Shown piece after piece: positions 12,819 through 36,353 of a stretch of 64,000 nucleotides of DNA (position 1 is the first letter of the stretch; every line of letters starts with the position of its first letter). A program made the position numbers and the translations under genes. Under the pieces are notes generated by a model that saw only the letters and a list, made by a program, of their open reading frames with translations, had not been told where the DNA came from and did no database searches. The DNA comes from Armatimonadota bacterium (GTDB taxonomy: Bacteria; Vulcanimicrobiota; JACPDS01; JBDRKI01): the NCBI GenBank assembly GCA_043814095.1, contig JBDRKI010000099.1, forward strand, positions 1-64,000, read 5' to 3'.

Positions 12819-14222
12819 ATGAATGAAAAACAGAAAAAAACCTTAAAAATAATGCTTTTGATTCTTCTCGTTTTCATATTCCTTTTTAACTCATATTTTT
12901 TAATACCCGGAAAATACAGGAAAACCGCGGAAAAATACTTAGAATCGGCCGTTTACTTTCCTTCCGACCTCTTAAGTTTTTACGGCAAAACAATCGTGGT
13001 ATTCGCGCCCCACTGCGATGACGAAGTGCTGGGATGCGGCGGACTTATTAAAAAAGCGGTATCGGCCGGCGCAAAAGTGCACATTGTTCTTATTACAAAC
13101 GGGGAAGGTTTTAAATACGCCGTTGAAGCTAAATTTTTAAAAGTTACGCCGAGCGTTGAAAATTATATTGATTTCGCCCGTATAAGACAGAAAGAGAGCC
13201 TTTCCGCGTTAAAACATCTGGGGATTGACCCGAAAAATATTTTCTTTCTCGGGTATCCTGACAGGGGCATAGCAAGAATGTGGGAGACAAACTGGGGTAG
13301 GGATAACCCGTTTTACTCACCTTATACAAAAAACTACTCATCGCTTTATGAAAACAGCTTCACAAAAAACACCCCTTACTCAGGGGAGGCGCTTTTTTCC
13401 GATATAGAAAAAATACTTAAAATCACGGGTCCGGATATTATCTATATACCGCATACCATGGATGCACATCCCGATCACTGGGCCGCAAACTGCTTTATAA
13501 CCGCCGCGGTTGAGAAAGAAAAGCATGGCAAAAAACCGCGGGTGCTGGCTTACCTCGTGCACAGAGGAAATTGGCCTTATCCTTCCGGAATACACACGTC
13601 TCTTGCCTTAATACCTCCAAAAATCCTGCAGAAAACAGGCACCCAGTGGGAGATACTCCCCCTCGGGGAACTGGTTGCCCGAGAAAAACTTGCCGCTATA
13701 AAAGAATACAAAACACAGCTTCTCTTTATGAAAAACTACCTTTTTTCCTTCGCGAGAAAAAACGAGGTTTTCGGCGCCTATCCCGGAGTTAAAATTAAAA
13801 ACATGGAAACAAACATGACAGGGGAAATTGTAATAAAAAACCCTTCAGGCGATACAATGAAAAAAAAGACGGAGAAAGACTGCGCCATTGATAAAATATG
13901 CGCTTATAAATATAACGGAAACTTGTATATAACCGTTAAAACGGTAAAAAACATCTCCGGAAAAACAAGGATAACTTTGTTTTTGACCCTGTTTTACGGT
14001 GAGAATAAATTAAAAAGGAAAGAAATAACTTATGACTGCGGTATGCGAGAGAATAATGACGCGCTTAAAAGATTTACCGTGCTACGCAATAAAAATATGG
14101 CAACCTTTATAATCCCCCTTAAACAGATAAATAACCCCCGGAAAATATTTCTGGGGGCTAAGTCCTACAACGGCAAAAGCTTGGTTGACCGCACATCTTA
14201 CAGGATGCTTATTCTGGAATAA
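12819..14222 (+). CDS. PIG-L/LmbE family deacetylase, N-terminally membrane-anchored
   Basis: APHCDDE, TNGE, LGYPD and HPDH motifs; N-terminal TM helix; extra C-terminal beta-rich region. Confidence 0.88.
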   Translation: MNEKQKKTLKIMLLILLVFIFLFNSYFLIPGKYRKTAEKYLESAVYFPSDLLSFYGKTIVVFAPHCDDEVLGCGGLIKKAVSAGAKVHIVLITNGEGFKYAVEAKFLKVTPSVENYIDFARIRQKESLSALKHLGIDPKNIFFLGYPDRGIARMWETNWGRDNPFYSPYTKNYSSLYENSFTKNTPYSGEALFSDIEKILKITGPDIIYIPHTMDAHPDHWAANCFITAAVEKEKHGKKPRVLAYLVHRGNWPYPSGIHTSLALIPPKILQKTGTQWEILPLGELVAREKLAAIKEYKTQLLFMKNYLFSFARKNEVFGAYPGVKIKNMETNMTGEIVIKNPSGDTMKKKTEKDCAIDKICAYKYNGNLYITVKTVKNISGKTRITLFLTLFYGENKLKRKEITYDCGMRENNDALKRFTVLRNKNMATFIIPLKQINNPRKIFLGAKSYNGKSLVDRTSYRMLILE

Positions 14223-15484: not shown

Positions 15485-16879
15485 TTAATTAAGAACGACG
15501 GTATCCCTGTATTCCGGAATATTAACTTCCCATTTATATTTTTTCTCTATTTTTTCTTTTAAAGATTCTATCGCCTTTTCTTCGCCGTGCACAAGAAAAA
15601 CCTTTGAAGGGTCGGATTCAAGATTAAAGAGCCAGTATAATATCTCTTCATAATCCGCATGGGCGGAGAAGCCGTTTATGACTTTTATCTTTGCTTCCAC
15701 CGGGAAAATCCGGCCGAATATCTTTATATTCTTCTCCCCCTCTAAAATTCTTCTCCCGCGGGTTCCCTCGGCCTGATACCCGCTGAAAAGTATCGTGTTT
15801 TTAGGGTCGCTTATGCGGTGAACAAGGTGATGCAGTATCCTGCCTCCCGTGCACATCCCGTCAGCGGATATAATAATATTCCCCGCGCCTAATTTATTCA
15901 GTTTTTTGGACTCTTCGTGCTTTCTCACGTAATGAAGGTTGTGGCAGAGTATGGGGGACTGCCCTTTATCTTCAAGCTTCTGCGTTTCTATATCATGGTA
16001 GTTTTTATACTTTAAAAATATTTTGGTCGCATTAATCGCCATGGGAGAATCAATATACACATTTGTCTTTTTGCTGATCCTTCCGGTATCCTGAAGCCTT
16101 TTAATATAATAAAGGATGGCCTGGGTCCTGCCCACAGAGAACGCGGGTATTAACAGAACGCCTCCGGCCGAGAAGGTATCATTAATGACTTTTTCCAGTT
16201 CAAACTCGTTGCTTTCCGAAGAATGAAGCCGGTTCCCGTAAGTTGATTCCAGAACAAGATAATCCGCTTTATATACCGGTGAGGGATTTTTTAATATAGG
16301 CACCTGGTAATGGCCGAGGTCTCCCGAGAAAATAATCCTTCTTACTTTCCCGTCATATCTTAATATAATCTCAAGTATCGCCGAACCGAGGAGATGCCCG
16401 GCATCCAGAAACTTAACCTGTATATTATCGGAAATTTTGTATACCTGATTATAATTTCTCGGCACAAAATACTTAAGGGATTCTTCAGCGTCTCTTACGG
16501 TATACAGGGGCATGGCAACTTCATATTTTGAAAACCCCTTTTTGTTGGCGTAAGCGGCGTATTCTTCCTGCAGGTGCGCCGAATCAAGAAGAAGGATCTG
16601 ACACAGGTCCACAGTGGGCTTTGTCGCCCATATCTGACCCTTAAATCCTTCTTTTGTGAATTTAGGTATATATCCCGTATGATCTATATGCGCGTGCGTA
16701 AGGATGCAGTAATCTATATCTGCGGGGTTAACGGGGAGTTTTTCCCAGTTCCTGCGCCTTAATTCCCTTAATCCCTGATACAAACCGCAGTCTATCAAAA
16801 TATTAACACGCCCGTCGGTTAAATAAAACTTGGATCCTGTAACTGTTTTGGTAGCGCCTAAAAATTGTAATCTAAACAT
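15485..16879 (-). CDS. MBL-fold beta-CASP metallo-hydrolase (RNA-processing family)
   Basis: THAHIDH, AGHLLGS, FSGDLG, ESTYG, GRTQ and FSAHAD motifs. Confidence 0.93.
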   Translation of the reverse strand: MFRLQFLGATKTVTGSKFYLTDGRVNILIDCGLYQGLRELRRRNWEKLPVNPADIDYCILTHAHIDHTGYIPKFTKEGFKGQIWATKPTVDLCQILLLDSAHLQEEYAAYANKKGFSKYEVAMPLYTVRDAEESLKYFVPRNYNQVYKISDNIQVKFLDAGHLLGSAILEIILRYDGKVRRIIFSGDLGHYQVPILKNPSPVYKADYLVLESTYGNRLHSSESNEFELEKVINDTFSAGGVLLIPAFSVGRTQAILYYIKRLQDTGRISKKTNVYIDSPMAINATKIFLKYKNYHDIETQKLEDKGQSPILCHNLHYVRKHEESKKLNKLGAGNIIISADGMCTGGRILHHLVHRISDPKNTILFSGYQAEGTRGRRILEGEKNIKIFGRIFPVEAKIKVINGFSAHADYEEILYWLFNLESDPSKVFLVHGEEKAIESLKEKIEKKYKWEVNIPEYRDTVVLN

Positions 16880-18047
16880 TTATCTCCTGAATAACTTTCT
16901 GGGCTATTTTTTTTGCCCCGCCCGGCGGGCCCATTCTCTCACGCCCTATTTTGGCCATATATTCGTATTTCGCGGGATTTTCTAAAATAGAAATTACTTC
17001 ACCTGCAATCTTAACCGGATCTTTATCAACAACGCTTAAAGCGTCCCCTAAAAGCCCTTTTTGGCGAAGCCTGTACCACCCGAGATTGCCGTCCGGCGTC
17101 TTTTCGGAAAACGCGACAACGGGTTTTCCCAGCCCTACCGCCTGTTCGTTCGCCGTGCCGGCCTGGCCCATAATAATATGGGCCCTGGTTATTATATCCC
17201 CGAAAATACCCCGTGTAAGATACACTGTGGAATTTCCCTTTTTCAGCTCCCCGACAATGCCTTTTGTGTAATTTGTCGGAGTAAGCTCCCATCCCAGACT
17301 TATAGATGGCGCCACCATATCTCCCATATCAACCGAAGAAGCAAGCGCCGTGAAGTATTTTACATCCCAGTTAACTTTTTTGCCCAATACTTCAACCGCC
17401 TGAAGAATCATTGAAAAATCTTTATACACATCTTCGCGGCTCCCAGGAAGTATGCCCACGACAACCTGCGGGTACTGTGTTCCCATGTTGCAGTCAACAG
17501 GATTTATGCAGTCCATCATGACATTCCCCGCAAAAACCGCGTTAATGCCGTAATCCCGCAGATCCGAAGCTGTAACCTCATCCCTGGGAAAAACAGTATC
17601 GCAGTATTTTTTAAAAAGTTTTTTTTCTTTATCCGAATAAGGACAGAAATAATTTGATTTTGCCGTCCCCACAAAAATTTGTTTTCTTTTTGTAAAAAAA
17701 GAATTTAAAATAACCGGGTAAGAATCACCCACTGACAATGAAAGATCTGTTTTTGAACGTATTTTTAATATTGAATTTATCTGCCCGAATGTCAAGCCTA
17801 TAAGCCCGGCTTTTACATCGTTAAAAAGCATCTTTGCGTGATTGGAAGGCACTAGCCCCCCGCTCGGCATAAGTTTGGTAGGACCGAGTTTTTTTACATC
17901 AACATTATTATAGGCATGCCCCTTGCCCACAAGGGGTAAGGCATATACGGTAATCCCCTGATCCGCTTTTTTAATCTCTGAAATTACTTGGGCGGCTATC
18001 TCGTCTTCGCCGTAGCCGTTGCTTAATACCAAAATATTCTTATCCAT
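16872..18047 (-). CDS. Lipid-A-disaccharide synthase-related GT-B glycosyltransferase (TIGR03492-like)
   Basis: LSNGYGED, LPLVGKG, PSGG, GNVMMD, LPGSR, AGTANEQAVGLGKP and RMGPPGGA motifs. Confidence 0.85.
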   Translation of the reverse strand: MDKNILVLSNGYGEDEIAAQVISEIKKADQGITVYALPLVGKGHAYNNVDVKKLGPTKLMPSGGLVPSNHAKMLFNDVKAGLIGLTFGQINSILKIRSKTDLSLSVGDSYPVILNSFFTKRKQIFVGTAKSNYFCPYSDKEKKLFKKYCDTVFPRDEVTASDLRDYGINAVFAGNVMMDCINPVDCNMGTQYPQVVVGILPGSREDVYKDFSMILQAVEVLGKKVNWDVKYFTALASSVDMGDMVAPSISLGWELTPTNYTKGIVGELKKGNSTVYLTRGIFGDIITRAHIIMGQAGTANEQAVGLGKPVVAFSEKTPDGNLGWYRLRQKGLLGDALSVVDKDPVKIAGEVISILENPAKYEYMAKIGRERMGPPGGAKKIAQKVIQEINV

Positions 18048-18056
18048 AAAACACCC

Positions 18057-18821
18057 TTATAATTTTATAAGTTCGGTGGTTTCTATATCAAATTTTTTAC
18101 TTCCCGGTTCTTTGCCCTTTTCTTTTTTATATACATTTAAATTTATCTTTGTTATATACCTTCCGTGGCTGCCGGAATAAAAAATAAAGCTGTTCCCTGC
18201 CGCTACCGGCTCTTTTAGCGCTTTATGGTCATGCCCTCCTAAAAAGATAAGGCTCTCTTGAAGGCTTTCCGCGATCTTTATGCATCTTTCGTATTCAAGA
18301 TGCATAAGCACGATTATAATGTCTGCTTTATCTTTTATCTCCTCGATTACATCTTTAAGAGATATTATATAATCCGTAAATTCAAATCCCGATAAGTTTT
18401 TCAAAAAAGAGCCCGGACCATACTGCCGGGGGGTTATCCCCGTTACGGCTATGTTTACCCCGTTTAAGTTCTTAATAATATACCGTTTTATAAGATTTTC
18501 ATTTTTCAGGTCTTTCAGGTTGGCGGAAACAAAAGGCATTTCTGTCTGTTTTACCCTGTTTTTAAAAATACTTCTCAGGTAATGAAACTCCCTGTTTCCC
18601 ACAGCCACCGCATCATAGCCCGCGTCACGCATTTTATCCAGTATATCTTCTCTTTTTTTAAAAACAGTTGAGCTTCCCCATATCGCGTCTCCGGAATCCA
18701 GAAGCAGGCTGTTCTGCCTGTTTATGGGGAGCTGTTCCAGATAAGGAAAAACCGCCCTCTCATTATGCAGATCGGTTGTGTGATAAATTAAAATCTTTTC
18801 ACCTGCCATATCCCGTTCCAT
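18057..18821 (-). CDS. Calcineurin-like metallophosphoesterase (5'-nucleotidase/UshA N-terminal domain only); candidate UDP-diacylglucosamine hydrolase
   Basis: HTTDLH, DSGD, GNREF, FVSAN, LMH and GGHDH motifs; no signal peptide and no C-terminal domain; alternative start at 18809. Confidence 0.8.
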   Translation of the reverse strand: MERDMAGEKILIYHTTDLHNERAVFPYLEQLPINRQNSLLLDSGDAIWGSSTVFKKREDILDKMRDAGYDAVAVGNREFHYLRSIFKNRVKQTEMPFVSANLKDLKNENLIKRYIIKNLNGVNIAVTGITPRQYGPGSFLKNLSGFEFTDYIISLKDVIEEIKDKADIIIVLMHLEYERCIKIAESLQESLIFLGGHDHKALKEPVAAGNSFIFYSGSHGRYITKINLNVYKKEKGKEPGSKKFDIETTELIKL

Positions 18822-20704
18822 ATCATCCCGACTATTGAGGCATCGCGGTTAATCATTAAAGCCATTATGATCATCATAGCGGCGATAATGGCCAGCGTGT
18901 GTATCTCAGCCTTAAAAATAACCTGCCAGTTAAAACGTCCCTGCAGTTCAAAATAAGGGCGCAGCGCGTTAGGTATAATTCTCGGGACCATTTTAGCGTA
19001 TATAAGGTAGGGTTCCCCGAAGGTTTCGTATAAATATACTTCTTCCAGAGGAATTATGATGCCGTAAACTACCATATATCCCATAAGAAAGAGCATAAGC
19101 ACGATAACTCTTTCTACGGACAGCATACCGCCTATGGCCATAAAATAAAAGCCAAGGGCTGTTACGCAGTTGCCCAGATACAGGGGATTTTTAATATAGG
19201 CGTAGGGGCCCGCCGTAACAAGCTGCGGGGCCATAAGCTCGCTTTCCCTCGTGGTTGAGCCCGCGTACCCGACACCCCAGATACGCAGAAATTCGCCCCC
19301 GAAAACAAAGATAAGTCCGAACAAAAACGAATACAGCGTGGGACGCGCGATAAAAAGCACAAAAACAGCCAGAGGCGCGAGAATCCAACCGCGCCATCCG
19401 AAAACAAACTCCCTGAAAGGCGTGCGTATTTTATGCGCATTGGCAAATAAATTTACGCTTGAATCAAGCGAACTTAATATAAGTTCGGCTATCTTCGTTG
19501 AAGCATCATGCTTGCCTTTAGTCACCTCAATTAATTCGTGGCTCATTTTTTCCCTTACATCATCATTCTTTAAAAGCTCCGCGGCCACATTCGTAACTTC
19601 TTCAGCTTTCTGTTCCACAATAACTTCAGGCACAATTTCTTTATCGGCAATCTGGTTTGGAAGCGCCGTAAATTTAATTCTCTTTAGTATCCAGTAAAGA
19701 AGCTTCTTCCTGAAAAAGGAGCCCATCGGAAGCGAACCCAGAAAGCCGGTAAGCCCGCCGCGCGGTATTTTCGCGCGCCATGTTGATGAAACAATCATGG
19801 GTTTTCCGAGCGCGGCCACTTCAGCGGTATTGGTGCCAGGTATGGTAAGCACAAGGTCGGATAAATTAATCACATCATACTGCATGCCCTGGAGCACCCT
19901 TACCTTAAGGCCTTTCTCCGTTTTTATAAACAACGAGCCGTTATTGGTTATAAGCTCGGCTTTTGTGCCCTCCAGCCCGCTGCCGGAAGGAGTAAGGCAT
20001 TTTTCAAGATCTTTTAAAGATAAAAACGGTGATACGCCGAGTAAAAACTGTATGTTGCTGAAACGGTCTTTCAGCTCTTCCGCCACTTTTAAATAGTAAG
20101 GAAGGCTTTCTTTCACATGATAGAACCTGCTGCCCGGAAGTATGCCGACAGTATGAGAAGTCTCTTCTATGCCCCACTGTTTGCTCACAGCCAGCTTATC
20201 AAGGGTGGGCTTTGCCTGTTCAACCATTAGATTCCCGACAACCACAATCCTGTCTTTTTTAAACCCCAAATCTGCCATCTCCTGGGCTATTGCCTCATCC
20301 TGCACGCCGAGGTAATCAAAATATTTATTCCATTTTGACGCTTTTACCGAATATGCGACCGAAGGATACCTGAGCCTTCTGGAGACTATAAGAGCGTGCC
20401 AGAAATCCCCGCCCAGAAAAACCACGCTCCCGAAAGCGGCGGGAGAATATTTTTTAAGCCTGAAACCGAAAAGAAACTGTACAAACTCTTTAGGATTTAT
20501 AACAACATCAACACCGTCAATGGCTTTGGCAATTTCTTCTTCTTTACCGCTCGCGTAAGGACACGGTACAAGCATAACAATTATGCGTATCTCCGGACGA
20601 CTTAATTTTAACTTTGCAATTGTTATTCTCACCCATGAAGAAAGCTCTCCCGGACTGTTTGTTATTATAACTATATCTTTTTTCTTATCATCAACTTTAA
20701 GCAT
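18788..20704 (-). CDS. LpxB-like GT-B glycosyltransferase fused to a C-terminal ICMT/PEMT-family membrane methyltransferase (LmtA-like)
   Basis: N-part has ITNSPGELSSW, LVPCPYASG, FLGGD, LPGSR, PGTNTAE and ALPN...IVPE; C-part has LRIWGVGY, LVTAGPYAYIKNPLYLGN and EEVYL...FG. Probable ATG at 20704 (track start 20749). Confidence 0.82.
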   Translation of the reverse strand: MLKVDDKKKDIVIITNSPGELSSWVRITIAKLKLSRPEIRIIVMLVPCPYASGKEEEIAKAIDGVDVVINPKEFVQFLFGFRLKKYSPAAFGSVVFLGGDFWHALIVSRRLRYPSVAYSVKASKWNKYFDYLGVQDEAIAQEMADLGFKKDRIVVVGNLMVEQAKPTLDKLAVSKQWGIEETSHTVGILPGSRFYHVKESLPYYLKVAEELKDRFSNIQFLLGVSPFLSLKDLEKCLTPSGSGLEGTKAELITNNGSLFIKTEKGLKVRVLQGMQYDVINLSDLVLTIPGTNTAEVAALGKPMIVSSTWRAKIPRGGLTGFLGSLPMGSFFRKKLLYWILKRIKFTALPNQIADKEIVPEVIVEQKAEEVTNVAAELLKNDDVREKMSHELIEVTKGKHDASTKIAELILSSLDSSVNLFANAHKIRTPFREFVFGWRGWILAPLAVFVLFIARPTLYSFLFGLIFVFGGEFLRIWGVGYAGSTTRESELMAPQLVTAGPYAYIKNPLYLGNCVTALGFYFMAIGGMLSVERVIVLMLFLMGYMVVYGIIIPLEEVYLYETFGEPYLIYAKMVPRIIPNALRPYFELQGRFNWQVIFKAEIHTLAIIAAMMIIMALMINRDASIVGMIWNGIWQVKRF

Positions 20705-20705
20705 A

Positions 20706-21860
20706 TTACTCCTCAACTTTATTAATAATATCGCGGATGAGCCCGGCAACTTTATTAATTACGCCGCCGGATTCAAAATTTTCTTTAATTCTTCGTAAAT
20801 CGCAGAGCATATCCCTTCTGGCGGGACTTTCTTTAATAAGCTCGCGCGCAAGCACGCTTATCCTGCGCGGACTTATGTCTTTTTGAATAAATTCAGGAAC
20901 GACTTCTTTTCCCAGAATAATATTAGGCAGAGAAATATGCTTAAGGTACGGGAATAATATCTTTGCCGCCGTATAATCAAACCAGTTTAACCTGTATAAG
21001 ACTATCATGGGGGTTAAAAAATACGCGGCCTCAAGAGTCGCTGTCCCGCTTGAAGTTATAATAAGATCGGATGCCTGCATTACATCATAAGCGGACCGGG
21101 TAACCCGTACAGGAAAGCCTGTCTTTGCCCTTGTTAAGTAATCCCTTATAATCTTCTCTATATGGGGCGATGAAGCCGGTATCATAAAGAAGGTCTCCGG
21201 GTCTTTCTCGTGAATCAGCATGGAAGTCTCTATCATACTGCCCAGAAGGAGCCTGACTTCATGAGCCCTGCTGCCGGGAAGAAGCCCTATAACCTTATCT
21301 TCTTTTATCCTGTACTCTTTTTTTATGCTGTGTTTATCCCTGCGCGCATCCTCTATTGCGTCAACTATTGGGTGGCCGAAATAATAAACTTTTTTTCCTG
21401 CTTTTTCATACATATTTTTAGTATGTTCAAAAACAGGTACGACATAATCAAAGAACCGGGCGTAACGGCGGGTTTTATCAAGATTTTCTTTCCTCCATGC
21501 GGAAGGCGGAAAATAATACATCATCTTGATGTTGTGTTTTTTAACATACTCCGCTATGCGCACATTTATTGCGGGCGAATCTATTAAAATCAAAAGATCG
21601 GGCTTGAATTTCACTATATCTTTTTTAAGCTTATCCACCTTAAACCACAGGTAGGGAACTTTCTTAACGGCTTCCCATATGCCTATAACTCCCCATGAAG
21701 AAGTATCCGTAAAATGTTCAAGCTCCTCGGATTTTAAACTGTGTCCGCCGGCTCCAAGAAACACAATATTATTATCCATCTGCTTCAGTTTCTTTACCAG
21801 TAATGAAGAATGCAGATCTCCAGAGGATTCAAACGAAGTTATGGCTATTTTTTTGTTCAT
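20706..21860 (-). CDS. lpxB: Lipid-A-disaccharide synthase
   Basis: ESSGDLH, LIDSP, PPSAW, GHP, LLPGSRAHE, SGTATLE, ISLPNII and VPEFIQ motifs; directly downstream of lpxA. Confidence 0.92.
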   Translation of the reverse strand: MNKKIAITSFESSGDLHSSLLVKKLKQMDNNIVFLGAGGHSLKSEELEHFTDTSSWGVIGIWEAVKKVPYLWFKVDKLKKDIVKFKPDLLILIDSPAINVRIAEYVKKHNIKMMYYFPPSAWRKENLDKTRRYARFFDYVVPVFEHTKNMYEKAGKKVYYFGHPIVDAIEDARRDKHSIKKEYRIKEDKVIGLLPGSRAHEVRLLLGSMIETSMLIHEKDPETFFMIPASSPHIEKIIRDYLTRAKTGFPVRVTRSAYDVMQASDLIITSSGTATLEAAYFLTPMIVLYRLNWFDYTAAKILFPYLKHISLPNIILGKEVVPEFIQKDISPRRISVLARELIKESPARRDMLCDLRRIKENFESGGVINKVAGLIRDIINKVEE

Positions 21861-21927: not shown

Positions 21928-22710
21928 TTATTTTCCGACTATTCCCAGCCTTGACGGATTATTTAAAAAATCTACCAAATGGCGGACTTCTTTGTCTGAA
22001 TTAAGATTGCTGTTAATTTCATCAACAGCCTGACCTATATTGAGTTTGGAATCCATAATATATTTGTACGCTTTTTTAAGCTCTTTTCTTCCTTTTTCGT
22101 CAATGCCTTTACGCGCCAATCCCCTGTAGTTTATACCGTAAAGTTTGATAGGCTGGCCGTCAGCGATTGAAAAAGGAGGCACGTCTTTTACTACCTTGGA
22201 AAAACCGCCTACCATTGCCATCTTGCCTATTTTGGCAAACTGGTGGATACCCGTCATACCGCCTATAACGGCATGATCTTCCACTTCAACATGACCGGAA
22301 AGCCCTGTTGAATTGGCGATTACTATGCCGCTGCCGAGCACGCAGTTGTGTGCCACGTGCACAAAAGCCATAAGCATATTATCGTTTCCGATAACTGTCT
22401 TTCCGCCTTCGTCCGCGGCCCTGTGAACGGTTATGAATTCGCGCAGTATATTATTGTCGCCTATCTCAACATAGCTTTCAAAATCCTTGTATTTTAAATC
22501 CTGGGGGGGAGCGCCTATAACGGATGAGACCCCTATCTTGTTGTTACTGCCTATTTTAGTCCATCCCTCTATAACACAGTGAGAAGCTATTTTGGTATTA
22601 TCGCCTATTATGACATTTTTCCCGATTATGGAATAAGGGCCTACCTCTACTCCCTTGCCTAATTTGGCCCCTTGATCAATGATAGCCGTAGGGTGTATCA
22701 CTTGCTTCAC
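21928..22710 (-). CDS. lpxA: Acyl-ACP--UDP-N-acetylglucosamine (or UDP-GlcNAc3N) acyltransferase
   Basis: Hexapeptide repeats, PQDLKY, HVAHNC (catalytic His), GHV, HQF and DVPPF motifs. Confidence 0.97.
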   Translation of the reverse strand: MKQVIHPTAIIDQGAKLGKGVEVGPYSIIGKNVIIGDNTKIASHCVIEGWTKIGSNNKIGVSSVIGAPPQDLKYKDFESYVEIGDNNILREFITVHRAADEGGKTVIGNDNMLMAFVHVAHNCVLGSGIVIANSTGLSGHVEVEDHAVIGGMTGIHQFAKIGKMAMVGGFSKVVKDVPPFSIADGQPIKLYGINYRGLARKGIDEKGRKELKKAYKYIMDSKLNIGQAVDEINSNLNSDKEVRHLVDFLNNPSRLGIVGK

Positions 22711-22711
22711 C

Positions 22712-23695
22712 TCAATTTTTTGTCATGGCCAGATATTCTTCAGCAAGCTCTCTGTTGCGTTTTACCGTTTTCATGGAGCTTACAATCTGCATGGCCAGCT
22801 CCAGCGCGCGTTTGCCGTCTTCCCCCGAAACCATGGGGGTTTTATGCTGTGACACGCATTCTATGAAATGAGCCAGCTCCAGGCGCAGAGGTTCGTCTTT
22901 CTCAACATATATATGCTCAAATGTATTGGGTTTGCCGTTCATGGGCGGTTTCATTAAAGTTACCGCCTGGTTTATAAAATCAAGAAGCAGGGTCCTGCCG
23001 TTCTCAATAACCTTCATCTGCCTTAGCTTCTCACCGCTTACCCTGGAGGATAAAAGCTGGGCGACACAGCCGTTTTTAAATGTGATCTTCACTATCGCCA
23101 GATCCTCAAAATCAGAGTATACGGATATCCCTGTTGCCTGAATCTCCTTAATATCCGATTTAACAATATTAAGAAGTATATCAAGATCATGAACCATTAA
23201 ATCCCAGACAATGCCCACGTCTAAATTCCTGTTTGTGGGGAAAGACATTCTCTGGGCTTCAATAAATAAAGGTTCGTTTATAAGTTTTTTAAACATCAGC
23301 ATCGCGGGATTAAACCTCTCCAGGTGGCCTACCTGCAGAATCATGTCTTTGCCGTTTGCCATATCTATTAATTCTTTGGCCTGACTCAAATCGGTTGTTA
23401 TAGGTTTTTCAATCATTACATGTATATTTCTGCTTAAAAAATCTTTGGCAATCTGATGGTGAAGATTTGTCGGAACTGCAATATTGACGGCGTCTACTTT
23501 TGCAAAAAGATCCTTATAATCAACGTAATAATCGGTCTGCAGCTTTCTCGCGACTCCTTCGCCGAGATCTTTCTGAATATCAACAAGGCCGGTCAGCTCA
23601 ACATTTTCCATTTCCGAATATATTCTGGCGTGGTGCCTGCCCATGTTGCCTACACCTATAACACCAACTCTGATTTTATTACTCAAAGCGTTCAC
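22712..23695 (-). CDS. Gfo/Idh/MocA oxidoreductase, GnnA-like (UDP-GlcNAc 3-dehydrogenase)
   Basis: GVGNMG, EKP, VGHLERFNPA and DLMVHDLD motifs; 1 bp from lpxA. Confidence 0.8.
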   Translation of the reverse strand: MNALSNKIRVGVIGVGNMGRHHARIYSEMENVELTGLVDIQKDLGEGVARKLQTDYYVDYKDLFAKVDAVNIAVPTNLHHQIAKDFLSRNIHVMIEKPITTDLSQAKELIDMANGKDMILQVGHLERFNPAMLMFKKLINEPLFIEAQRMSFPTNRNLDVGIVWDLMVHDLDILLNIVKSDIKEIQATGISVYSDFEDLAIVKITFKNGCVAQLLSSRVSGEKLRQMKVIENGRTLLLDFINQAVTLMKPPMNGKPNTFEHIYVEKDEPLRLELAHFIECVSQHKTPMVSGEDGKRALELAMQIVSSMKTVKRNRELAEEYLAMTKN

Positions 23696-23787: not shown

Positions 23788-25053
23788 TTATTTTTCCACC
23801 ACGAGGGCAAACATAAGTTCGCCTTCAGCCACCACCTTGTCTTCCACTTTAGCGATGACTTTAACCTTGCCCATCTGGTTGCTTCTTAAGCTGATAACAT
23901 CGGCCTCAATTAAAAGCTGGTCTCCCGGAACAACGGCTTTTCTGAATTTTACCTTGTCTATCCCGGCAAAGAAAGGGGTTATTTTTTTGTCTCTGCGCCC
24001 GTTTAAAAGCATAATGCCGCCCACCTGGGCCATTGCCTCAATAATTAAAACACCCGGCATAATCGGATTCCCGGGGAAATGACCGTTAAAGAACGGCTCG
24101 TTTATCGTTACGTTTTTTATCCCGACAGACCTTTTATCGTTCTCAAGCTCAAGAATCCTGTCCACCAGCAAAAACGGATAACGGTGCGGTAAAATACCGA
24201 ATATCTCTTTAATATTAATGTCAGCCACTGTACCCTCCTTAACCACAGGCAGTCTTTTGATAAAATCAATATCCAGACTATGGCTGGATTTATAAGCGTA
24301 AATATGCGCCTTAAGCGGTTTTCCCAAAACGGCCAGATCTCCGATAAGGTCCAGTCCTTTATGGCGGACAATCTCGTCATCAAAACGGAGTTTGGTCATT
24401 ATACTATCCTGTTTTATAACCACTGCGTTATCAAGAGAGCCGCCAAGAGCCAGATTTCTTTCCTTTAAGCTCTCTACTTCCTCCCAGAAACCAAAAGTTC
24501 TCGCGGGAGCAACTTCGGAAAGAAAATCATTTTTTTCCTTAATAAAATCAAAACTCTGGGCACCTACCATGGGATGGTTAAAATTTACCAGAGTTGTAAT
24601 TTTCAGTTCATCCGCGGGATGAGCGGTTATGAAAGAGTCGCCCTTTTTAAACGAGAACGGCTCTTTTATTATAAGATAGGATTTATCGGCGTTCTGTTCA
24701 AGCAGATGAGATTTTATCTCGGCGGCAAAAGGAAGAGCACTCCCGTCTAAAGCCGGTATTTCTTCGCCGCTTACCTCTATAAGCAGGTTATCAACCCCGT
24801 AAGCGTAAAGCGCCGCCAGAAGATGTTCCACCGTCCTGACATTACAGTTTTTTGTTCCTACGGATACGGAACGAACTGTAGACAATACACCAGCCGGACA
24901 CAATTCAATCTCGGGCGTTCCTGGAAGATCTACACGTTTAAATTTAATGCCGTAATTTTCTTCCCTGGGAATCAATCTGACTTTTACCTCTGTACCCGAG
25001 TGAAGGCCTATGCCGGAAAATTCCAGTTCTTGTTTTAATGTTTTCTGCTTCAT
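23788..25053 (-). CDS. lpxC/fabZ: Bifunctional LpxC-FabZ fusion
   Basis: LpxC motifs [24 protein letters not shown] and [10 protein letters not shown]; FabZ motifs [11 protein letters not shown] and [20 protein letters not shown]. Confidence 0.97.
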
Positions 25054-25090: not shown

Positions 25091-26089
25091 TTATTTTGCC
25101 TTATTTTCAAGTTCTTCTATTCTTTTATTAAAACTTTCAATGGTTTTAGAGAGGGATGTCATATATGACTGCATTTTTAATTCTTCCCTGTGGCTCTTTG
25201 CGGGGAAACCGCTTACCATGCTTTTGGGTTTTATCTCTTTTGTAACACCGGCGCGTCCGAGCACCATTGTGTCATGCCCTATCTTCACGTGATCGGATAC
25301 CCCCACCTGGGCCGCCAGTATAACCCGGTCTCCGACTTTGGAAGATCCTGCTACACCGGTCATGGCAACGATTATACAATCTTCACCTATCTCAACATTA
25401 TGTGCTATATGAACAAGGTTGTCTATCTTAGTGCCCCTGCCTATCCTGGTAGCGCCTGTTGTGGCTCTGTCCACGCAGGTATTTGAACCGATCTCCGCCT
25501 CATCTCCTATATGCACGGTGCCGAGCTGGGGTATCTTAAAATTCTTAGCGCCTTCCTTAACATAGCCGAAGCCTTCGGAACCTATTACCGCGCCGCTGTA
25601 TATGATCACACTGCGCCCCATAAAAACCCTGTCAAATATGACAGCATTGGGATAGATTACCGTTCCTGCGCCTATTTCAGCGCCTTCACCTATATAAACA
25701 CCGGCATGAATCTGAACATTATCACCGATAACGGCGCCCTTATTAATCACCGCGTTCGGACCCACGGCAACATCTTTGCCGAGCCGCGCTTCAGGGTCTA
25801 TAACCGCCTTCTCGTGTATGCCGTTAAGAGGCGTTTTTACTTCAAACAAACCCAAAACTTTCGCAAACGCAAGCTTTGGATCGCCGGCAACAAGAAGGGT
25901 CTTGCCCCTAATGTCAGTATATTTAATTTTATTGCTCGCGATAATAACGCCTGCCGTGGAGTTTAAGGCCTTCTCAAAATTTCTCGTATCCGCCGCCCAG
26001 ATGATGGAACTCGGACCGGAAATTTCCACATCATCGCCTTTTAATTCGGCTTTTATTTCCCGCGCTATTTCGCTTGCTTTAAAAGACAT
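25091..26089 (-). CDS. lpxD: UDP-3-O-(3-hydroxyacyl)glucosamine N-acyltransferase
   Basis: Hexapeptide repeats, IGSEGFGY, KIPQLG, TKIDNLVHIAHNV and SGFPA motifs; probable ATG at 26089 (track start 26125). Confidence 0.96.
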   Translation of the reverse strand: MSFKASEIAREIKAELKGDDVEISGPSSIIWAADTRNFEKALNSTAGVIIASNKIKYTDIRGKTLLVAGDPKLAFAKVLGLFEVKTPLNGIHEKAVIDPEARLGKDVAVGPNAVINKGAVIGDNVQIHAGVYIGEGAEIGAGTVIYPNAVIFDRVFMGRSVIIYSGAVIGSEGFGYVKEGAKNFKIPQLGTVHIGDEAEIGSNTCVDRATTGATRIGRGTKIDNLVHIAHNVEIGEDCIIVAMTGVAGSSKVGDRVILAAQVGVSDHVKIGHDTMVLGRAGVTKEIKPKSMVSGFPAKSHREELKMQSYMTSLSKTIESFNKRIEELENKAK

Positions 26090-26099
26090 TTCAATACCT

Positions 26100-26507
26100 T
26101 TACTGCAGTTTATTTTTAATTTCATCGGTTATATCTATTCCGCCGTATTCCACGGCAAAATCCACCACTACAATATTCAGTTTCTTTTTCTTCGCGATTT
26201 GCGCAACCACTTCTTCAAGCTTTTCATCAAGAGCGTTGCCTTTTTCCTTCCATTTTTCGTTCATCTGCTCAATAACCGCCTTTTGTTTGTCCGTTATCTT
26301 AGACGGGTCTTTGGGCAGTTTGCCGAGCAGAAGATCGCTCTCAACCTGGTACTCGCTCATCAAGTCCCTGTATTCCGCCCAGTTGGCAAGAAGCTTATAC
26401 CTGTTAATAATGCCTGTTTTTAAATTTGCCGGCTTACACCCGGTGACAGAAATAATAATCCCCATACATATAAACAACACTGCCGCGACTATAACTATTT
26501 TTTTCAT
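26100..26507 (-). CDS. Small OmpH/Skp-like protein with lipobox
   Basis: Lipoprotein signal ...SVTGC; Skp-type C-terminus (IAKKKKLNIVV...YGGIDITDEI). Confidence 0.7.
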   Translation of the reverse strand: MKKIVIVAAVLFICMGIIISVTGCKPANLKTGIINRYKLLANWAEYRDLMSEYQVESDLLLGKLPKDPSKITDKQKAVIEQMNEKWKEKGNALDEKLEEVVAQIAKKKKLNIVVVDFAVEYGGIDITDEIKNKLQ

Positions 26508-26516
26508 ACGTCCTCC

Positions 26517-27830
26517 TTATTCCATTTCCATAACCTGTTTGGTCAGATCAACAGCATCTATATCCAGAATATATTCTCCTACAACATAAGATATATTCTC
26601 CGGTATTGCGGCTTTTCCGACCTTCTGGCTTATACTGCTTATAATCTCGTCGTAAAGACGGTCCCTCTGCTCTTCAAGTATTTCAATCTGTTTTTCCAGT
26701 TCTTTCCTTCTTTCGTCAGAAAGCTTGTCCAGAGATTCTTTTTTATCCATGGCCTTTTCTACAAGCTCTTTTTCCTGCTTTTCAAGCTTTTTCTGCAGTT
26801 CAATCCTTTTGTCCTCAAACTGTTTCTCATATTTAGCGGAAAGCTCTTCAACCTGTTTCTGGTACGCTACTCTTTTTTCTTCCAGTTTCTGCTTGGCATA
26901 TTTATACTGGGGTGATGAGAGTTCTTTCTTGCTGGAATATTTCTCATAAAGCCCTTTTCCTTTTATCTGGGCCATAACGTCTTTTTCAAGATCCTCGTTA
27001 TACCGGGCAACTTCCCGCTCTATTTCATTAACTCTTTTCAGCTTATATTCTTCAAACTTTTTATCAAGCTGGAGCTGTTTAATTTCCGCAAGGTGCGATT
27101 CTCTCGCGTTCAGAGCTTTAAGCTGATTGATCACTTCTTCCCTTTCCTCGGGCGTTACAGCGTTGTCGCGTTTAAAAACCAGGTTGATTTTTTCATTCTG
27201 ATTTTTAAGCTGTATTTCCCTCTCGTAAGCGGAAAGTTCCTGGCGCTGTTTCTCTTTAATACCCCTTAGCTCCTCAGTTAATTTTTTCTGCAGTTCAAGG
27301 CGCTTTGCCGCAACCTGTTTTTCCTTAAACGCAATTAAGTCCTTGACAAACTGGTCCAGGCTCTGCTGGAGCGTCTGGGATGTAACTTTTTTGGGCGGGG
27401 CCAGAAGTTCTTCGGGGCTCGGTCCCTGCGATTGAAGTATTTTTATCTGCTCAACTATCTGGTTTTTTTCTGCTTCCATCTGCGAACCAAGCTCGGCCTG
27501 TTCTTTCTGCAGTCTCTTCTGTATCTGGAGCAGCTCTTCACCGAGCTGCTGGGCCGCCTGCTGCTGCTTTTTCTCCATCATAACGGCCACGCTCTTTAAG
27601 GGGTCAAGCTCCATATCCAGCTGTTCCTGCAGGCCCATAAGCTGTTCGTTAAGCTTTACAAGCTTATCATAATCAGGATGGGCTTCTATAAGCTTATCCA
27701 GTTCAACCACGCCGAATTTACCGTAAGGCATATCCGCGCTGTTAACGGGGGTTTTAAATATGAAGAAACTGGCGGCAAATACAATGCCGACAAGCACCGT
27801 TACTGTTATCGCATATTTTAAAAATCTCAT
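26517..27830 (-). CDS. OmpH/Skp-like protein with very long coiled coil
   Basis: Signal peptide, Skp N-strand (FGVVELDKLIEAHPDY) and C-strand (VDLTKQV) around ~330 aa of Q/E/K heptads. Confidence 0.7.
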   Translation of the reverse strand: MRFLKYAITVTVLVGIVFAASFFIFKTPVNSADMPYGKFGVVELDKLIEAHPDYDKLVKLNEQLMGLQEQLDMELDPLKSVAVMMEKKQQQAAQQLGEELLQIQKRLQKEQAELGSQMEAEKNQIVEQIKILQSQGPSPEELLAPPKKVTSQTLQQSLDQFVKDLIAFKEKQVAAKRLELQKKLTEELRGIKEKQRQELSAYEREIQLKNQNEKINLVFKRDNAVTPEEREEVINQLKALNARESHLAEIKQLQLDKKFEEYKLKRVNEIEREVARYNEDLEKDVMAQIKGKGLYEKYSSKKELSSPQYKYAKQKLEEKRVAYQKQVEELSAKYEKQFEDKRIELQKKLEKQEKELVEKAMDKKESLDKLSDERRKELEKQIEILEEQRDRLYDEIISSISQKVGKAAIPENISYVVGEYILDIDAVDLTKQVMEME

Positions 27831-27859
27831 ATTAACACGATCCCTCTATAATCAAACTT

Positions 27860-28684
27860 TTATTTCTCGGTCTGGGCCCTGAATTCCTTAACTACTTCTT
27901 CGGTCACATTGACGCCGCCGAACATTATGCTGTTCTTGCTTAAAATAAGGCTTAATCCCTTATTTTTTGATATCTGCTCAACGACTTTGATAACGGTATC
28001 GTTTACTGGAGAATATATTTCCGCTCTTTTCTTGTAAAAATCCATCTCATACTGCCTTGTAAGTTTTTCCCTTTCCTTGCTTCCAAGCTTCTTGATCTGC
28101 GCTTCAATCTGGCCCTGCAGGCCTTTATAGTAAGCGGCAAGCTTCTCGTCCGCGTCACGGAACGCTTTTAACCTTCTTATAACTTCCTGATCAAAATATC
28201 CCACGGGTGAATTAAATTTCGCAGGAAGAGAGCTTAATTTTAATTCTTTCTCGCTGCCGACCATTTTAATAACATCATCTGTTATGTCTTTAATCCCGTA
28301 AACGGATATCTTTTTGTCAACGACCACGCTCATACCGCTCTTGCCTGCCACGACTTCTATCGCGGCCTCAACTCTTTCTTTCAGCGGATTTAAAAGAACT
28401 GCTCTTTTCTGCTCAAGCTGCTGCTGGTATGTTATAAGGAGCTCGCTCTGCTTGGCTTTTGACAGGTCTTTTGCTTTTTTGTTGTACAGATCGTAAACTT
28501 CTTTAGCGAAAGTTTCATACTGTTTTAACGCGCCGGCAAATTTTTCAGACGCGAATATTTTATCCTGATCAACACAGCCCACCTGTGCCGCCGGATTTGA
28601 TAAGCTTCCTATAAGAAACTTCACACCGAAAATAATACCTACAATTACCAGAACTATTACTGCTGCAGTAATAAACTTTTTCAT
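27860..28684 (-). CDS. OmpH/Skp family chaperone with two tandem Skp domains
   Basis: Two repeats: VGCVDQDKI...YGIKDITDDV and VGYFDQEVI...FGGVNVTEEV. Confidence 0.8.
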   Translation of the reverse strand: MKKFITAAVIVLVIVGIIFGVKFLIGSLSNPAAQVGCVDQDKIFASEKFAGALKQYETFAKEVYDLYNKKAKDLSKAKQSELLITYQQQLEQKRAVLLNPLKERVEAAIEVVAGKSGMSVVVDKKISVYGIKDITDDVIKMVGSEKELKLSSLPAKFNSPVGYFDQEVIRRLKAFRDADEKLAAYYKGLQGQIEAQIKKLGSKEREKLTRQYEMDFYKKRAEIYSPVNDTVIKVVEQISKNKGLSLILSKNSIMFGGVNVTEEVVKEFRAQTEK

Positions 28685-28706
28685 GATTTAAACCTCCTTG
28701 TTTTTA

Positions 28707-30836
28707 CTAAAACGACTGTCCCATGCCGATTGAGAACCTGCCTTTACCGCCGCCCCTTACGGCATAGTCTATCCTTATAACGCCTACTGCCAGGCCGATC
28801 TTCTGGAAGACAAGCCTTAAACCAACGCCTACGTCCTTGCGCAGGGTTGAATCCTGTCCCGGCGACCATGCGTTGCCCGCATCGGCAAAAACCGCGGCCT
28901 TTAAAAGATCTATCTTGCCCACTGGGAACCTGTACTCGGCGTTCGCAAGAAGCATCCTTGAGCCGAATATTGAGTTATCCTCGTAAGCTCTTAAAGTATC
29001 AACACCGCCTATGTAAAAATACTCCATTGCCGGGGGTATTCCCGATATCGCCCCTCCCCACAACCTTAAAGCTATGCTTCTTTCTTTTTTAAGTGGGAAA
29101 TATCTTCTTATTTCGGCCTGATACTTGCTGAAGTTATAAGAACCCTTTAGTGAATTTCCGGCCACCATGCCGGATGTATTTATATAATAACCCTTATAGG
29201 GATTAAATACGTCATCTCTTGTGTCATATATGCCGGTAAGGGATACCGCGTTTAAAGAACCGCTGCCCATGGCTATCGGCGTATATTCCGACGCCGCGCT
29301 TTTGTTCATAGCTATGGTTTCCCTTCTTAATCCTATAATGCCGCGAAGGTCAAGACCCAGCCATCTTCCGTAAGAGACTGTGCCGCCTCCCCTGTGATCG
29401 TCATAATAGGAGTACAGGACAGGTTCGGTATCGTATATGGGCTGTCTCAGTTCCCTGTAAGTACTGTTGAAAACCGAGAAACCTATCTGATCGGCGCGCT
29501 TGTTAATCGCCGGCGAATAATAAGATACTGCCCATGAATCTATATTGAAGCCCCTCTGCCAGCTTGTTGATATACTCTGGCCGTTTCCTCCCAGATTCCT
29601 CATATTGGCGGTAACCCCGCCCGTTAAGCCGCTTCTGGATGTCGCGCTAACGCCGCCGCCGCCGTAGCCCACGCCGAAGGTAAAGAAGTTATACTTCTTT
29701 GGCTCTTTAACTTTCCATATGACTATATATTTGTCGGGAGCCGAACCCTGCTCTGTTTCTATCTCTATATTGTCAAAAAGCTGCAGGTCCTGGAGATGCC
29801 TGTGATCTCTCATTATGCTTTCACTGCGCAGGAACATTCCCTGCTTCATCTTTAATATGCGCATAATGAAATATGTTTTGGTTTTTACATTGCCGGTTAC
29901 TTCCACTTTTTCAACGGTAACTTCCGCAACATCAATATTTACAATCCCCTTGTCATAATCTATCTGCGGCTGCTGTATGTTGGCAAAATAGTCTTTCTCT
30001 TTGTAAAAATCTAAAAGATTCGTAAGATCTTTTGATAGAACTTTTTTATTAAAAAGCTCCCCTGGCTTTAAATTTATTATCTTTTTCAGCTTTTCTTCGG
30101 AATAGGTTTTATTGCCGGTTATGTTTACTTCCGTTATCATCATCGCTTCTCTTATGTCTATCTTTATCTCGCCTTCAGGGGTCCATATTATATCCTTAAT
30201 ATGGTTCGGGAGCCAGTAGCCGAGATCTTCATTATAATAATTTCTTATCACCGCAAGGTCGCCGCTTAAAACTTTATTGTTAAGAATCTTACCGATCTTG
30301 GTTTCCATAAGAGCCAGAAGTTTATCAGTAGTAACTATTTTATTACCGGTTATTTCTATCTCTTTAACTATCGGATTTTCCAGAACCGTGAATACCACCT
30401 TTACGCCGTCGTCAAAAGGAACTTCCGAGTAATTTACGTCGGAGAAGTATCCCATATCCAGGATGGCGCGCCTGTCCCTTATAAGTTTGGGCTCTAGAAC
30501 AGGATCGCCCGTTTTGGTTATTAAAACATTTTTTATTTCATCTGCGGGAATTGCATTATTTCCCTCTATAACAACCGCGGTTACAAGTTTAGGTTTCTCG
30601 CTTACCACATCTTCCGGAAGAGGAAGCCCCTCATAAGGGATCTCTTCTACGGTTTCTTCTTTATCGGTATCTTCCATGGATGCGGGAAGCTCTTCTTCCG
30701 TATGCACCGGCTGGGGAACGGCAGGCTTTTTGTCCTTGTTATCCTCGGCCAAAACAGCGCTTGTTATTAACGCGATAACAGCCAGAAGAAGTATCAATAT
30801 AATTATTTTTGATCTGCCGTATAATAATTTATTCAT
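28707..30836 (-). CDS. bamA: Omp85/BamA outer-membrane assembly protein (3 POTRA domains + barrel)
   Basis: Signal peptide, three POTRA repeats (IEGN/ITGN), NLGGNGQ, DTRDD and AEYRFP motifs, terminal GQSF. Confidence 0.92.
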   Translation of the reverse strand: MNKLLYGRSKIIILILLLAVIALITSAVLAEDNKDKKPAVPQPVHTEEELPASMEDTDKEETVEEIPYEGLPLPEDVVSEKPKLVTAVVIEGNNAIPADEIKNVLITKTGDPVLEPKLIRDRRAILDMGYFSDVNYSEVPFDDGVKVVFTVLENPIVKEIEITGNKIVTTDKLLALMETKIGKILNNKVLSGDLAVIRNYYNEDLGYWLPNHIKDIIWTPEGEIKIDIREAMMITEVNITGNKTYSEEKLKKIINLKPGELFNKKVLSKDLTNLLDFYKEKDYFANIQQPQIDYDKGIVNIDVAEVTVEKVEVTGNVKTKTYFIMRILKMKQGMFLRSESIMRDHRHLQDLQLFDNIEIETEQGSAPDKYIVIWKVKEPKKYNFFTFGVGYGGGGVSATSRSGLTGGVTANMRNLGGNGQSISTSWQRGFNIDSWAVSYYSPAINKRADQIGFSVFNSTYRELRQPIYDTEPVLYSYYDDHRGGGTVSYGRWLGLDLRGIIGLRRETIAMNKSAASEYTPIAMGSGSLNAVSLTGIYDTRDDVFNPYKGYYINTSGMVAGNSLKGSYNFSKYQAEIRRYFPLKKERSIALRLWGGAISGIPPAMEYFYIGGVDTLRAYEDNSIFGSRMLLANAEYRFPVGKIDLLKAAVFADAGNAWSPGQDSTLRKDVGVGLRLVFQKIGLAVGVIRIDYAVRGGGKGRFSIGMGQSF

Positions 30837-30912
30837 CTTTATGCTCCTTGATTATGTAAAAGTTTGCCGTTATATTGCATGTGTAGCAAAAAAGTCTTTT
30901 ATCTTTCTATAA

Positions 30913-30941
30913 GTTATACCACAATCCTCTTAATATATCAA
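30913..30941 (-). promoter_or_regulatory. Sigma-70/A promoter for bamA-skp-lpxD-lpxC
   Basis: TTGATA-17 bp-TATAAC with extended -10 TG on the minus strand. Confidence 0.55.
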
Positions 30942-30973
30942 TATCTAATATATTATAATAAATTAGCACTGTT

Positions 30974-36253: not shown

Positions 36254-36353
36254 AATATAATTTAAATAACTTCTAAATTTTAATAAAATAACCTTCTGCA
36301 TTACGAATTAATTTAGTAGTCGCAAAAAATTCATTATTATTTATATTTTCAAT

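Follow-up and report, generated by a model that had tools for sequence, protein, structure and literature searches.

A GT19-type glycosyltransferase fused to an ICMT/PEMT-superfamily methyltransferase in the lipid A operon of a Vulcanimicrobiota bacterium

The stretch of DNA analyzed here, called the window, consists of 64,000 nucleotides (nt) of contig JBDRKI010000099.1 from an Armatimonadota bacterium (GTDB phylum Vulcanimicrobiota; GCA_043814095.1); all coordinates are window positions unless a locus or genome is named. On its minus strand, directly after lpxB, a single gene encodes a glycosyltransferase (GT) domain joined to a membrane methyltransferase (MT) domain. This fusion open reading frame (ORF) is a genuine gene and not an artefact, and represents a lineage-specific joining of genes that, in most Eremiobacterota-type genomes, lie side by side in the lipid A operon. 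A role of the fusion in the lipid A pathway is considered likely. More specifically, the protein would be a bifunctional late lipid A enzyme, whose GT adds a sugar to the disaccharide and whose MT methylates an anionic group; to this reading, a probability of about 0.5 is given. The 1-phosphate is the single most likely methyl acceptor, although this assignment, made by analogy, is tentative. The fusion is laid out as follows:

18788..20749, minus strand: open frame containing the fusion, from the ORF listing; an upstream TTG start overlaps lpxB
18788..20704, minus strand: fusion gene, 638 amino acids (aa) and stop codon, from the translation, both Pfam domains and the AlphaFold2 model
19445..20704, minus strand: GT19-superfamily GT-B glycosyltransferase domain, residues ~1-420, an LpxB paralogue by PF02684, hhalign and structure matches
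19394..19444, minus strand: helical linker, residues ~421-437, from the AlphaFold2 secondary structure (predicted local distance difference test score, pLDDT, about 85)
18791..19393, minus strand: ICMT/PEMT-superfamily membrane methyltransferase domain, residues ~438-638, with five long hydrophobic helices
20709..20714, minus strand: Shine-Dalgarno-like GAGGAG inside the end of lpxB, read from the sequence

The ATG at 20704 is the likely start: GAGGAG precedes it at a distance of 5 nt, and the stop codon of lpxB ends 1 nt before it. From this codon, the reading frame runs over 638 aa with no internal stop. The original prediction, made from the sequence without database searches, had described one uninterrupted ORF in which a GT-B domain of ~420 aa is joined to a multi-transmembrane domain of ~200 aa. 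Both parts are recovered by Pfam: LpxB (PF02684) matches with 57.4 bits (cut-off 22.6; best stretch, residues 263-400) and PEMT (PF04191) with 26.1 bits (cut-off 25; residues 461-564), while ICMT (PF04140) reaches 22.5 bits on the whole protein (cut-off 24; residues about 461-564). The MT part, predicted at about 18788-19400, maps to 18791-19393. Both motifs quoted in that prediction, NSPGELSSW and LVTAGPYAYIKNPLYLGN, are present in the translation, with most of their residues unchanged across 12 fused homologues. Among the NCBIfam models, TIGR03492 (54.5 bits), lpxB (52.2) and LmtA_Leptospira (47.5) match the fusion, all far under their cut-offs. As a single chain, the fusion was modelled by AlphaFold2 with a pLDDT of 92.2 and a predicted template-modelling score of 0.85 (76 aligned sequences). 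The position of the linker matches the stop/start overlap or short gap that separates the GT and MT genes in relatives.

Fusions of this type are recurrent. Out of 5.8 billion proteins searched, 8000 candidates were scored and 665 were retained at E ≤ 0.001, the best 120 of which were listed. These 120 contain 12 full-length two-domain fusions, namely P0002-P0010 (607-637 aa, 49-78% identity to the window protein) and P0070-P0072 (580-587 aa, 33-34% identity), originating from lgn, jgi, ncbi and ena. Also among the 120 are one 461-aa fragment with both domains, 10 proteins of 789-831 aa and about 96 stand-alone GTs of 351-451 aa. In an alignment of twelve fused proteins (P0005, nearly the same as P0004, was omitted), the mean column identity is 60%, and invariant blocks occur in both domains.

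An assembly chimera or a sequencing stop-loss artefact is extremely improbable. Such an origin could be suspected in a draft genome of 129 contigs, and the high GC content of some relatives does generate false long frames, for which reason the frames of G091 (626 aa) and G096 (580 aa) were rejected as fusions. Moreover, sequencing-run matches had shares of 0.23, 0.10 and 0.09, and the six contigs (151-223 nt) obtained from runs X1-X3 include none within 19096-19892, the region of the junction. However, the window has a GC content of about 43%, which makes spurious long frames unlikely; fused ORFs were read directly in loci L001, L002 and L069; both domains and the linker are modelled confidently as one chain; and the 12 fused homologues from several sources contradict a fusion that would be absent in relatives. 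One identical 213-nt contig from an RNA library maps to 20302-20514, which is no demonstration of transcription.

Among 101 sampled genomes of the phylum, all with a completeness of at least 85%, true fusions were verified in G000, G001 and G026. The fused ORF of G026 shares about 33-35% identity with members of each fused clade. Five long frames are left out of this tally (G093, 517 aa; G020, 506 aa; G100, 496 aa; G080, 452 aa; G060, 444 aa). On a quick maximum-likelihood tree built from 60 GT domains, which rests on Shimodaira-Hasegawa-like approximate likelihood ratio test (SH-aLRT) support only, the GT-MT label needs three changes, at least two of which are forced by well-supported branches.

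The GT domain is related to LpxB mainly through its C-terminal part. With hhalign, it aligns to the window's own LpxB with a probability of 98.9 over GT residues 113-414, and its best solved relative is E. coli LpxB (5w8s, E 5.9e-11). Foldseek, run with the model of the whole fusion, picked up the GT domain only; the matches, all of them GT-B enzymes, include LpxB 5w8s at rank 5 (E 4.5e-11), and in this model, the domain has the two-Rossmann GT-B fold. In the accessible part of Bohl 2018 (PMC5785501), E15, S17, D98 (the proposed base), PGSR 198-201, T277 and E281 are named as active-site residues of E. coli LpxB, P198-R201, T277 and E281 being pyrophosphate and ribose contacts and R201 being critical. 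By way of the window LpxB, PGSR 190-193, T291 and E295 of the GT align to P198-R201, T277 and E281, whereas GT E20 and D100 resemble E15 and D98 by motif only (G-E-x-S/T, and a strand followed by D). All of these GT residues are invariant in the 12 fused proteins. Judged by this residue set, the domain is a catalytically intact GT19 glycosyltransferase and a paralogue of LpxB.

It is not assigned to LpxB itself: the LpxB equivalog TIGR00215 gives 52.2 bits on the fused GT (cut-off 190.25), and TIGR03492, with 54.5 bits, is also under its cut-off (219.2). The N-terminal, acceptor-binding half shows no alignment to LpxB in hhalign, which suggests that the acceptor probably differs from that of LpxB. 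For LpxB and the GT domain, a complex prediction scored 0.00, which speaks neither for nor against binding. The GT had originally been typed as a cyanobacterial LpxB-like protein. This holds insofar as its nearest Atlas clusters are ~430-aa LpxB-like proteins labelled mostly Cyanobacteriota and relatives occur in metagenome-assembled genomes labelled Sericytochromatia; the TIGR03492 family, on the other hand, is represented by another gene of the operon.

The MT domain taken alone gives marginal Pfam matches to ICMT (25.5 bits, cut-off 24) and PEMT (25.6 bits, cut-off 25), and the fusion ORF is the only PEMT-family match in its own genome. In 25/25 MT orthologues scanned, the best NCBIfam family is LmtA_Leptospira (TIGR04571; best E 9e-18); PEMT and isopcys_mtase match 25/25 as well, the latter with a best E of 1.1e-10 and 35.5 bits for the window domain. 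Against LmtA_Leptospira, the window domain scores 48.8 bits (cut-off 325) and covers model positions 47-202 of 252. It aligns across both cofactor-region motifs to Tribolium ICMT (5vg9, E 6.3e-10) and Ma-ICMT (4a2n, E 2.1e-7). A separate model of the domain (pLDDT 88.8) has ICMT-family chains as its top four Foldseek matches, with probabilities of 0.99-1.00 and template-modelling scores of 0.48-0.56 but weak E-values (0.02-0.4).

A loss of methyl transfer, leaving the MT mainly as a membrane anchor or scaffold for the GT, is very unlikely. LpxB itself requires membrane association, according to the accessible part of PMC5785501, and the Pfam scores of the MT are marginal. Nevertheless, 28 columns are invariant in the 25 orthologues at 36-62% identity, including both ICMT cofactor-region motifs, and the MT is kept in 101/101 sampled genomes, including those without an adjoining GT. 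In the fusion model, hydrophobic helices span residues 438-452, 457-481, 507-523, 529-562 and 593-620. The GT and motif 1 are thus set apart by one hairpin, and the two motifs by a second, which would place all three on the same side of the membrane. From this model, the GT domain and both MT motifs should face the cytoplasm.

The lipid A setting proposed at the outset is supported by the position of the fusion inside a lipid A operon, directly after the true lpxB. The gene order, all on the minus strand, is lpxD, lpxC-fabZ, gnnA-like, lpxA, lpxB, GT-MT fusion, metallophosphoesterase (MPE) and TIGR03492. The neighbors of the fusion are:

25091-26125, minus strand: lpxD, from the translation and an order conserved in 40 related loci, no family scan
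23788-25053, minus strand: lpxC-fabZ fusion, a single ORF of 421 aa; LpxC (PF03331) at 24250-25047, fabZ by translation and order
22712-23695, minus strand: gnnA-like UDP-GlcNAc 3-dehydrogenase, by Pfam and NCBIfam
21928-22710, minus strand: lpxA, from the translation and an order conserved in 40 related loci, no family scan
20706..21860, minus strand: true lpxB, with PF02684 at 251.9 bits, TIGR00215 at 210.8 (cut-off 190.25) and E. coli LpxB at E 6e-38
18057..18821, minus strand: UshA-like MPE, cytoplasmic, 254 aa, by Metallophos and UshA-like NCBIfam matches
16872..18047, minus strand: TIGR03492 'lipid-A-disaccharide synthase-related protein' (298.8 bits, cut-off 219.2), the last gene and the third of GT19 type in the operon

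The MPE gene and the 3' end of the fusion overlap. GNRE forms the third metallophosphoesterase block of the MPE both in the window and in 8/8 relatives, and this H-to-R change is described as typical of LpxH in the accessible part of Opiyo 2010 (PMC3087551). The MPE is, from its sequence, a candidate LpxH substitute (UDP-2,3-diacylglucosamine hydrolase). The lpxC and fabZ parts match in separate frames or ORFs in many related loci. Upstream of lpxD, the minus strand carries tamB (1775 aa), bamA, skp/ompH and a gene of 437 aa that belongs to no Pfam family (26517-36301). Near the operon, at 12819-14222 on the plus strand, lies a PIG-L/LmbE-type de-N-acetylase of 467 aa with a hydrophobic segment at its N-terminus, which could deacetylate a sugar or glycolipid.

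Related loci were collected by scanning one genome per species, which returned 62 loci, and the window proteins were compared to them by tblastn. The titles of their records refer to Candidatus Xenobia, Vulcanimicrobiota, Eremiobacteraeota, UBP9 and Candidatus Bruticola, beside evidently loose labels; 20/62 carry Sericytochromatia or other cyanobacterial labels. A GT adjoins lpxB in 42 loci, and the MT follows downstream on the same strand in 38 of these, within 110 nt in 35 of the 38 (the exceptions are L031, L056 and L060). Three of the four loci without an MT (L010, L034 and L061) stop at the contig edge right after the GT; in the fourth, L050, no MT is found in the remaining 1.8 kb. The MPE comes after lpxB, GT and MT in related loci.

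Three architectures occur: LpxB, GT and MT as separate proteins, in the majority; LpxB fused to GT with a separate MT; and GT fused to MT, as in L001, L002 and the window. The LpxB-GT type, with the MT gene downstream, was found in 12 loci with ORFs of 808-858 aa; double-length proteins of this type, known from gut-type Eremiobacterota, measure 805-858 aa, and the LpxB-GT rows form one clade on the 60-domain GT tree. L003 and nine Sericytochromatia-type loci are not counted here, since by ORF length their apparent LpxB-GT fusions are cross-hits. The two kinds of fusion link LpxB with GT and GT with MT. In eight loci (L004, L005, L007, L012, L013, L024, L044 and L049), a small Gly/Ala-rich, multi-helix membrane protein of 146-254 aa with a basic N-terminus is encoded between MT and MPE; it is absent from this position in the window, L001 and L003.

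In the large Eremiobacterota family f10, which accounts for 38 of the 100 other sampled genomes, the three operons examined, all from high-GC genomes, also contain the MPE, but the best GT-like matches are only 26-30% identical and unlinked. From the gene arrangement of f10, GT-MT resembles a cassette placed between lpxB and MPE, with MPE-TIGR03492 as part of the invariant core. As a side observation, a 673-aa GDP-mannose 4,6-dehydratase in a related locus (L068:10274-12295, minus strand) has its halves split by an insert with a LAGLIDADG-like match, which suggests an intein.

The late steps of the common lipid A pathway were not recovered in the host genome (2.50 Mb, 129 contigs, 98.97% complete, 1.38% contamination). 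No match was found in it for the LpxK, WaaA, LpxH, LpxI, LpxL and KdsA models, and KdsB reached only 33.6 bits (cut-off 155). LptD gave no match either, with an insensitive model that matched only 2/14 control genomes. With no genes found for the synthesis or transfer of 3-deoxy-D-manno-octulosonate (Kdo), Kdo2-lipid A, the named substrate of LmtA, cannot be made. The same pattern extends over the 101 sampled genomes. LpxC is present in 100/101, whereas LpxK exceeds its cut-off in 1/101 and WaaA in 1/101, the latter in a genome with 9% contamination. The MT domain, by comparison, matches 101/101 (100 at E ≤ 2.5e-26), and the GT domain matches 94/101 at E ≤ 1e-30. LpxK was found in 0/36 genomes in the class of one Sericytochromatia-labelled genome with a GT homologue. 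In its accessible part, Opiyo 2010 (PMC3087551) notes a "four-enzyme pathway" (LpxA, C, D and B only) for Cyanobacteria and Dictyoglomi; as described there, the gene pattern seen here is that pathway.

Within this setting, the fusion would work on the cytoplasmic side of the inner membrane, with the tetra-acyl disaccharide delivered by LpxB as its substrate. Anchored in the membrane through the MT helices, the GT domain would add a sugar from a UDP-sugar, its acceptor being the free 6'-OH of the distal unit, the same kind of group as LpxB uses. On that lipid, the MT domain would methylate an anionic group, most likely the 1-phosphate, in the manner of Leptospira LmtA. Along with the MPE and the TIGR03492 gene, the fusion would be part of a late pathway standing in for LpxH, LpxK and WaaA in the phylum. 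The coupling of glycosylation and methylation, put forward in the original prediction, is reasonable from the gene order and the fusions, with the reservation that GT and MT are separable in some lineages. The proposed likeness of the MT to LmtA is upheld at the level of the best-matching family; it does not extend to orthology, given 47.5-48.8 bits against a cut-off of 325, nor to the Kdo genes, none of which were found.

A wider scheme is possible but doubtful. According to it, Eremiobacterota finish lipid A without Kdo or LpxK: the MPE would act as LpxH; the operon GT, the TIGR03492 protein and a fourth GT19-like copy would replace WaaA and add the first core sugars directly to the disaccharide; and an LmtA-like MT would act on the 1-phosphate throughout the phylum. 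If this Kdo-free pathway is true, the GT-MT fusion would be a natural record of two steps carried out on one substrate at one membrane site. The fourth gene (G000:C102:114940-116136; L072:6944-8152, minus strand) encodes 402 aa, 31% identical to the GT domain, with 35.7 bits to PF02684. A pfkB-type sugar kinase and a cytidylyltransferase-like gene, together resembling a split HldE, immediately precede it, and an asparagine-synthase-like gene lies on its downstream side. By its sequence and neighborhood, it may be a core glycosyltransferase using activated heptose.

Several observations weigh against a bifunctional lipid A enzyme with the 1-phosphate as methyl acceptor. First, the LmtA score of the MT is far below the cut-off, and MddA matches 18/25 MT orthologues; since the ICMT superfamily holds O-, carboxyl, N- and S-methyltransferases, homology cannot fix the chemistry of the MT. 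Second, cyanobacterial lipopolysaccharide is described as free of Kdo, heptose and phosphate in the accessible part of Opiyo 2010 (PMC3087551); if the same is true here, there is no 1-phosphate to methylate. Third, GT and MT do not always occur together. Three Sericytochromatia-labelled genomes have the GT, with no MT orthologue in them. The three f10 operons read lpxD-lpxC-fabZ-lpxA-lpxB-MPE-TIGR03492, with no gnnA, GT or MT, and the MT of this family lies away from the lpx operon, after an NAD-dependent sugar epimerase/dehydratase in 2/3 loci and before a cation-efflux gene in 2/3. Finally, TIGR03492 matches the control genomes of Synechococcus, Deinococcus radiodurans and Bacteroides. D. 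radiodurans is not known to make lipid A; hence, GT19 relatives are not necessarily tied to it.

A sugar-acid route is judged unlikely. Here, the GT would transfer a uronic acid or another carboxylated sugar to lipid A, and the MT would methyl-esterify the carboxylate, the classical ICMT/Ste14 chemistry. The solved relatives of the MT are indeed carboxyl methyltransferases (5vg9, 5v7p and 4a2n), and isopcys_mtase matches all 25 orthologues. The adjacency of GT and MT in 38/42 loci, together with the fusions, fits a product-to-substrate relay, and such a route would work even on a lipid without phosphate (cf. the accessible part of PMC3087551). It is opposed by the window domain itself, for which the LmtA model outscores the ICMT model and covers more, and by the persistence of the MT in f10, where no operon-type GT orthologue was found.

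Of similarly low probability is a pair that modifies another membrane lipid, for example a glycolipid or a phospholipid with PEMT-like head-group methylation, and merely travels with the lpx operon. The best Pfam match of the MT, PEMT, its unlinked position in f10 and the Deinococcus match to TIGR03492 are all compatible with this. In addition, the Sericytochromatia-labelled loci with a GT homologue show no lpx neighbors within their flanks. A mere traveller is, however, difficult to reconcile with the fixed position of the module between lpxB and MPE in 38/42 loci, the LpxB-GT fusions in 12 loci and the translational coupling of the fusion start to lpxB. Furthermore, the usual late lipid A enzymes are absent throughout the phylum, so that their steps are left to be filled.

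Ever since the "four-enzyme pathway" was noted, it has been an open question how diderms that have just LpxA, C, D and B finish and modify their lipid A (accessible part of PMC3087551). Two uncharacterized genes belonging to that gap are here physically joined, between lpxB and a candidate LpxH substitute. The architecture had been thought undescribed, and in the searchable literature, supplementary files excluded, no paper was found that deals with an LpxB-ICMT fusion or with the chemistry of lipid A in Eremiobacterota; further phyla may be given in the additional files of Opiyo 2010. The fusion provides named candidates for late lipid A steps and a possible second case of lipid A methylation outside Leptospira. 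Vulcanimicrobium alpinus, a cultured representative of the phylum, has been characterized as Gram-negative and as containing 3-OH fatty acids (PMC9758169). The phosphate chemistry of lipid A governs recognition by innate immunity and cationic peptides, and some members of the phylum inhabit animal guts.

Among known systems, ICMT/Ste14 (PF04140; 4A2N and 5V7P) shares its fold and cofactor-region motifs with the window MT. Its known substrates, in contrast, are prenylated proteins, and nothing around the fusion suggests protein prenylation. A CAAX-processing link between the ICMT-like domain and an Rce1-like protease gene (36880-37779, minus strand) was considered and rejected, as the two are 16 kb apart and do not share an operon.

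LmtA of Leptospira interrogans (TIGR04571) is a Ste14p-like lipid A Kdo2 1-phosphate O-methyltransferase. Like LmtA, the window MT is a polytopic membrane methyltransferase of the ICMT superfamily; LmtA is linked to lipid A, and the window MT is encoded beside lpx genes. A gnnA-type gene is found in both Leptospira and the window organism, which implies a 2,3-diamino sugar backbone. Leptospira lipid A, according to the titles of papers, has four amide-linked chains and a methylated phosphate. Unlike LmtA, the window MT is fused to, and its relatives are fused to or encoded beside, a GT19 glycosyltransferase, and its substrate cannot be Kdo2-lipid A in a host genome in which neither Kdo genes nor LpxK were found.

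With LpxB (GT19; PF02684; TIGR00215; 5W8S, 5W8N and 5W8X), the GT has in common the GT-B fold, an aligning C-terminal nucleotide-binding half, the active-site PGSR, T and E residues and a gene placed directly after lpxB. It differs in being a paralogue (52.2 bits vs. 190.25), with the true lpxB upstream, and in carrying a C-terminal methyltransferase. A further parallel is formed by the double-length LpxB-GT proteins, which belong to the same GT family and the same operon and are likewise fusions of neighboring genes. In those proteins, however, the partner of the GT is LpxB, on its N-terminal side, and the MT stays a separate gene downstream.

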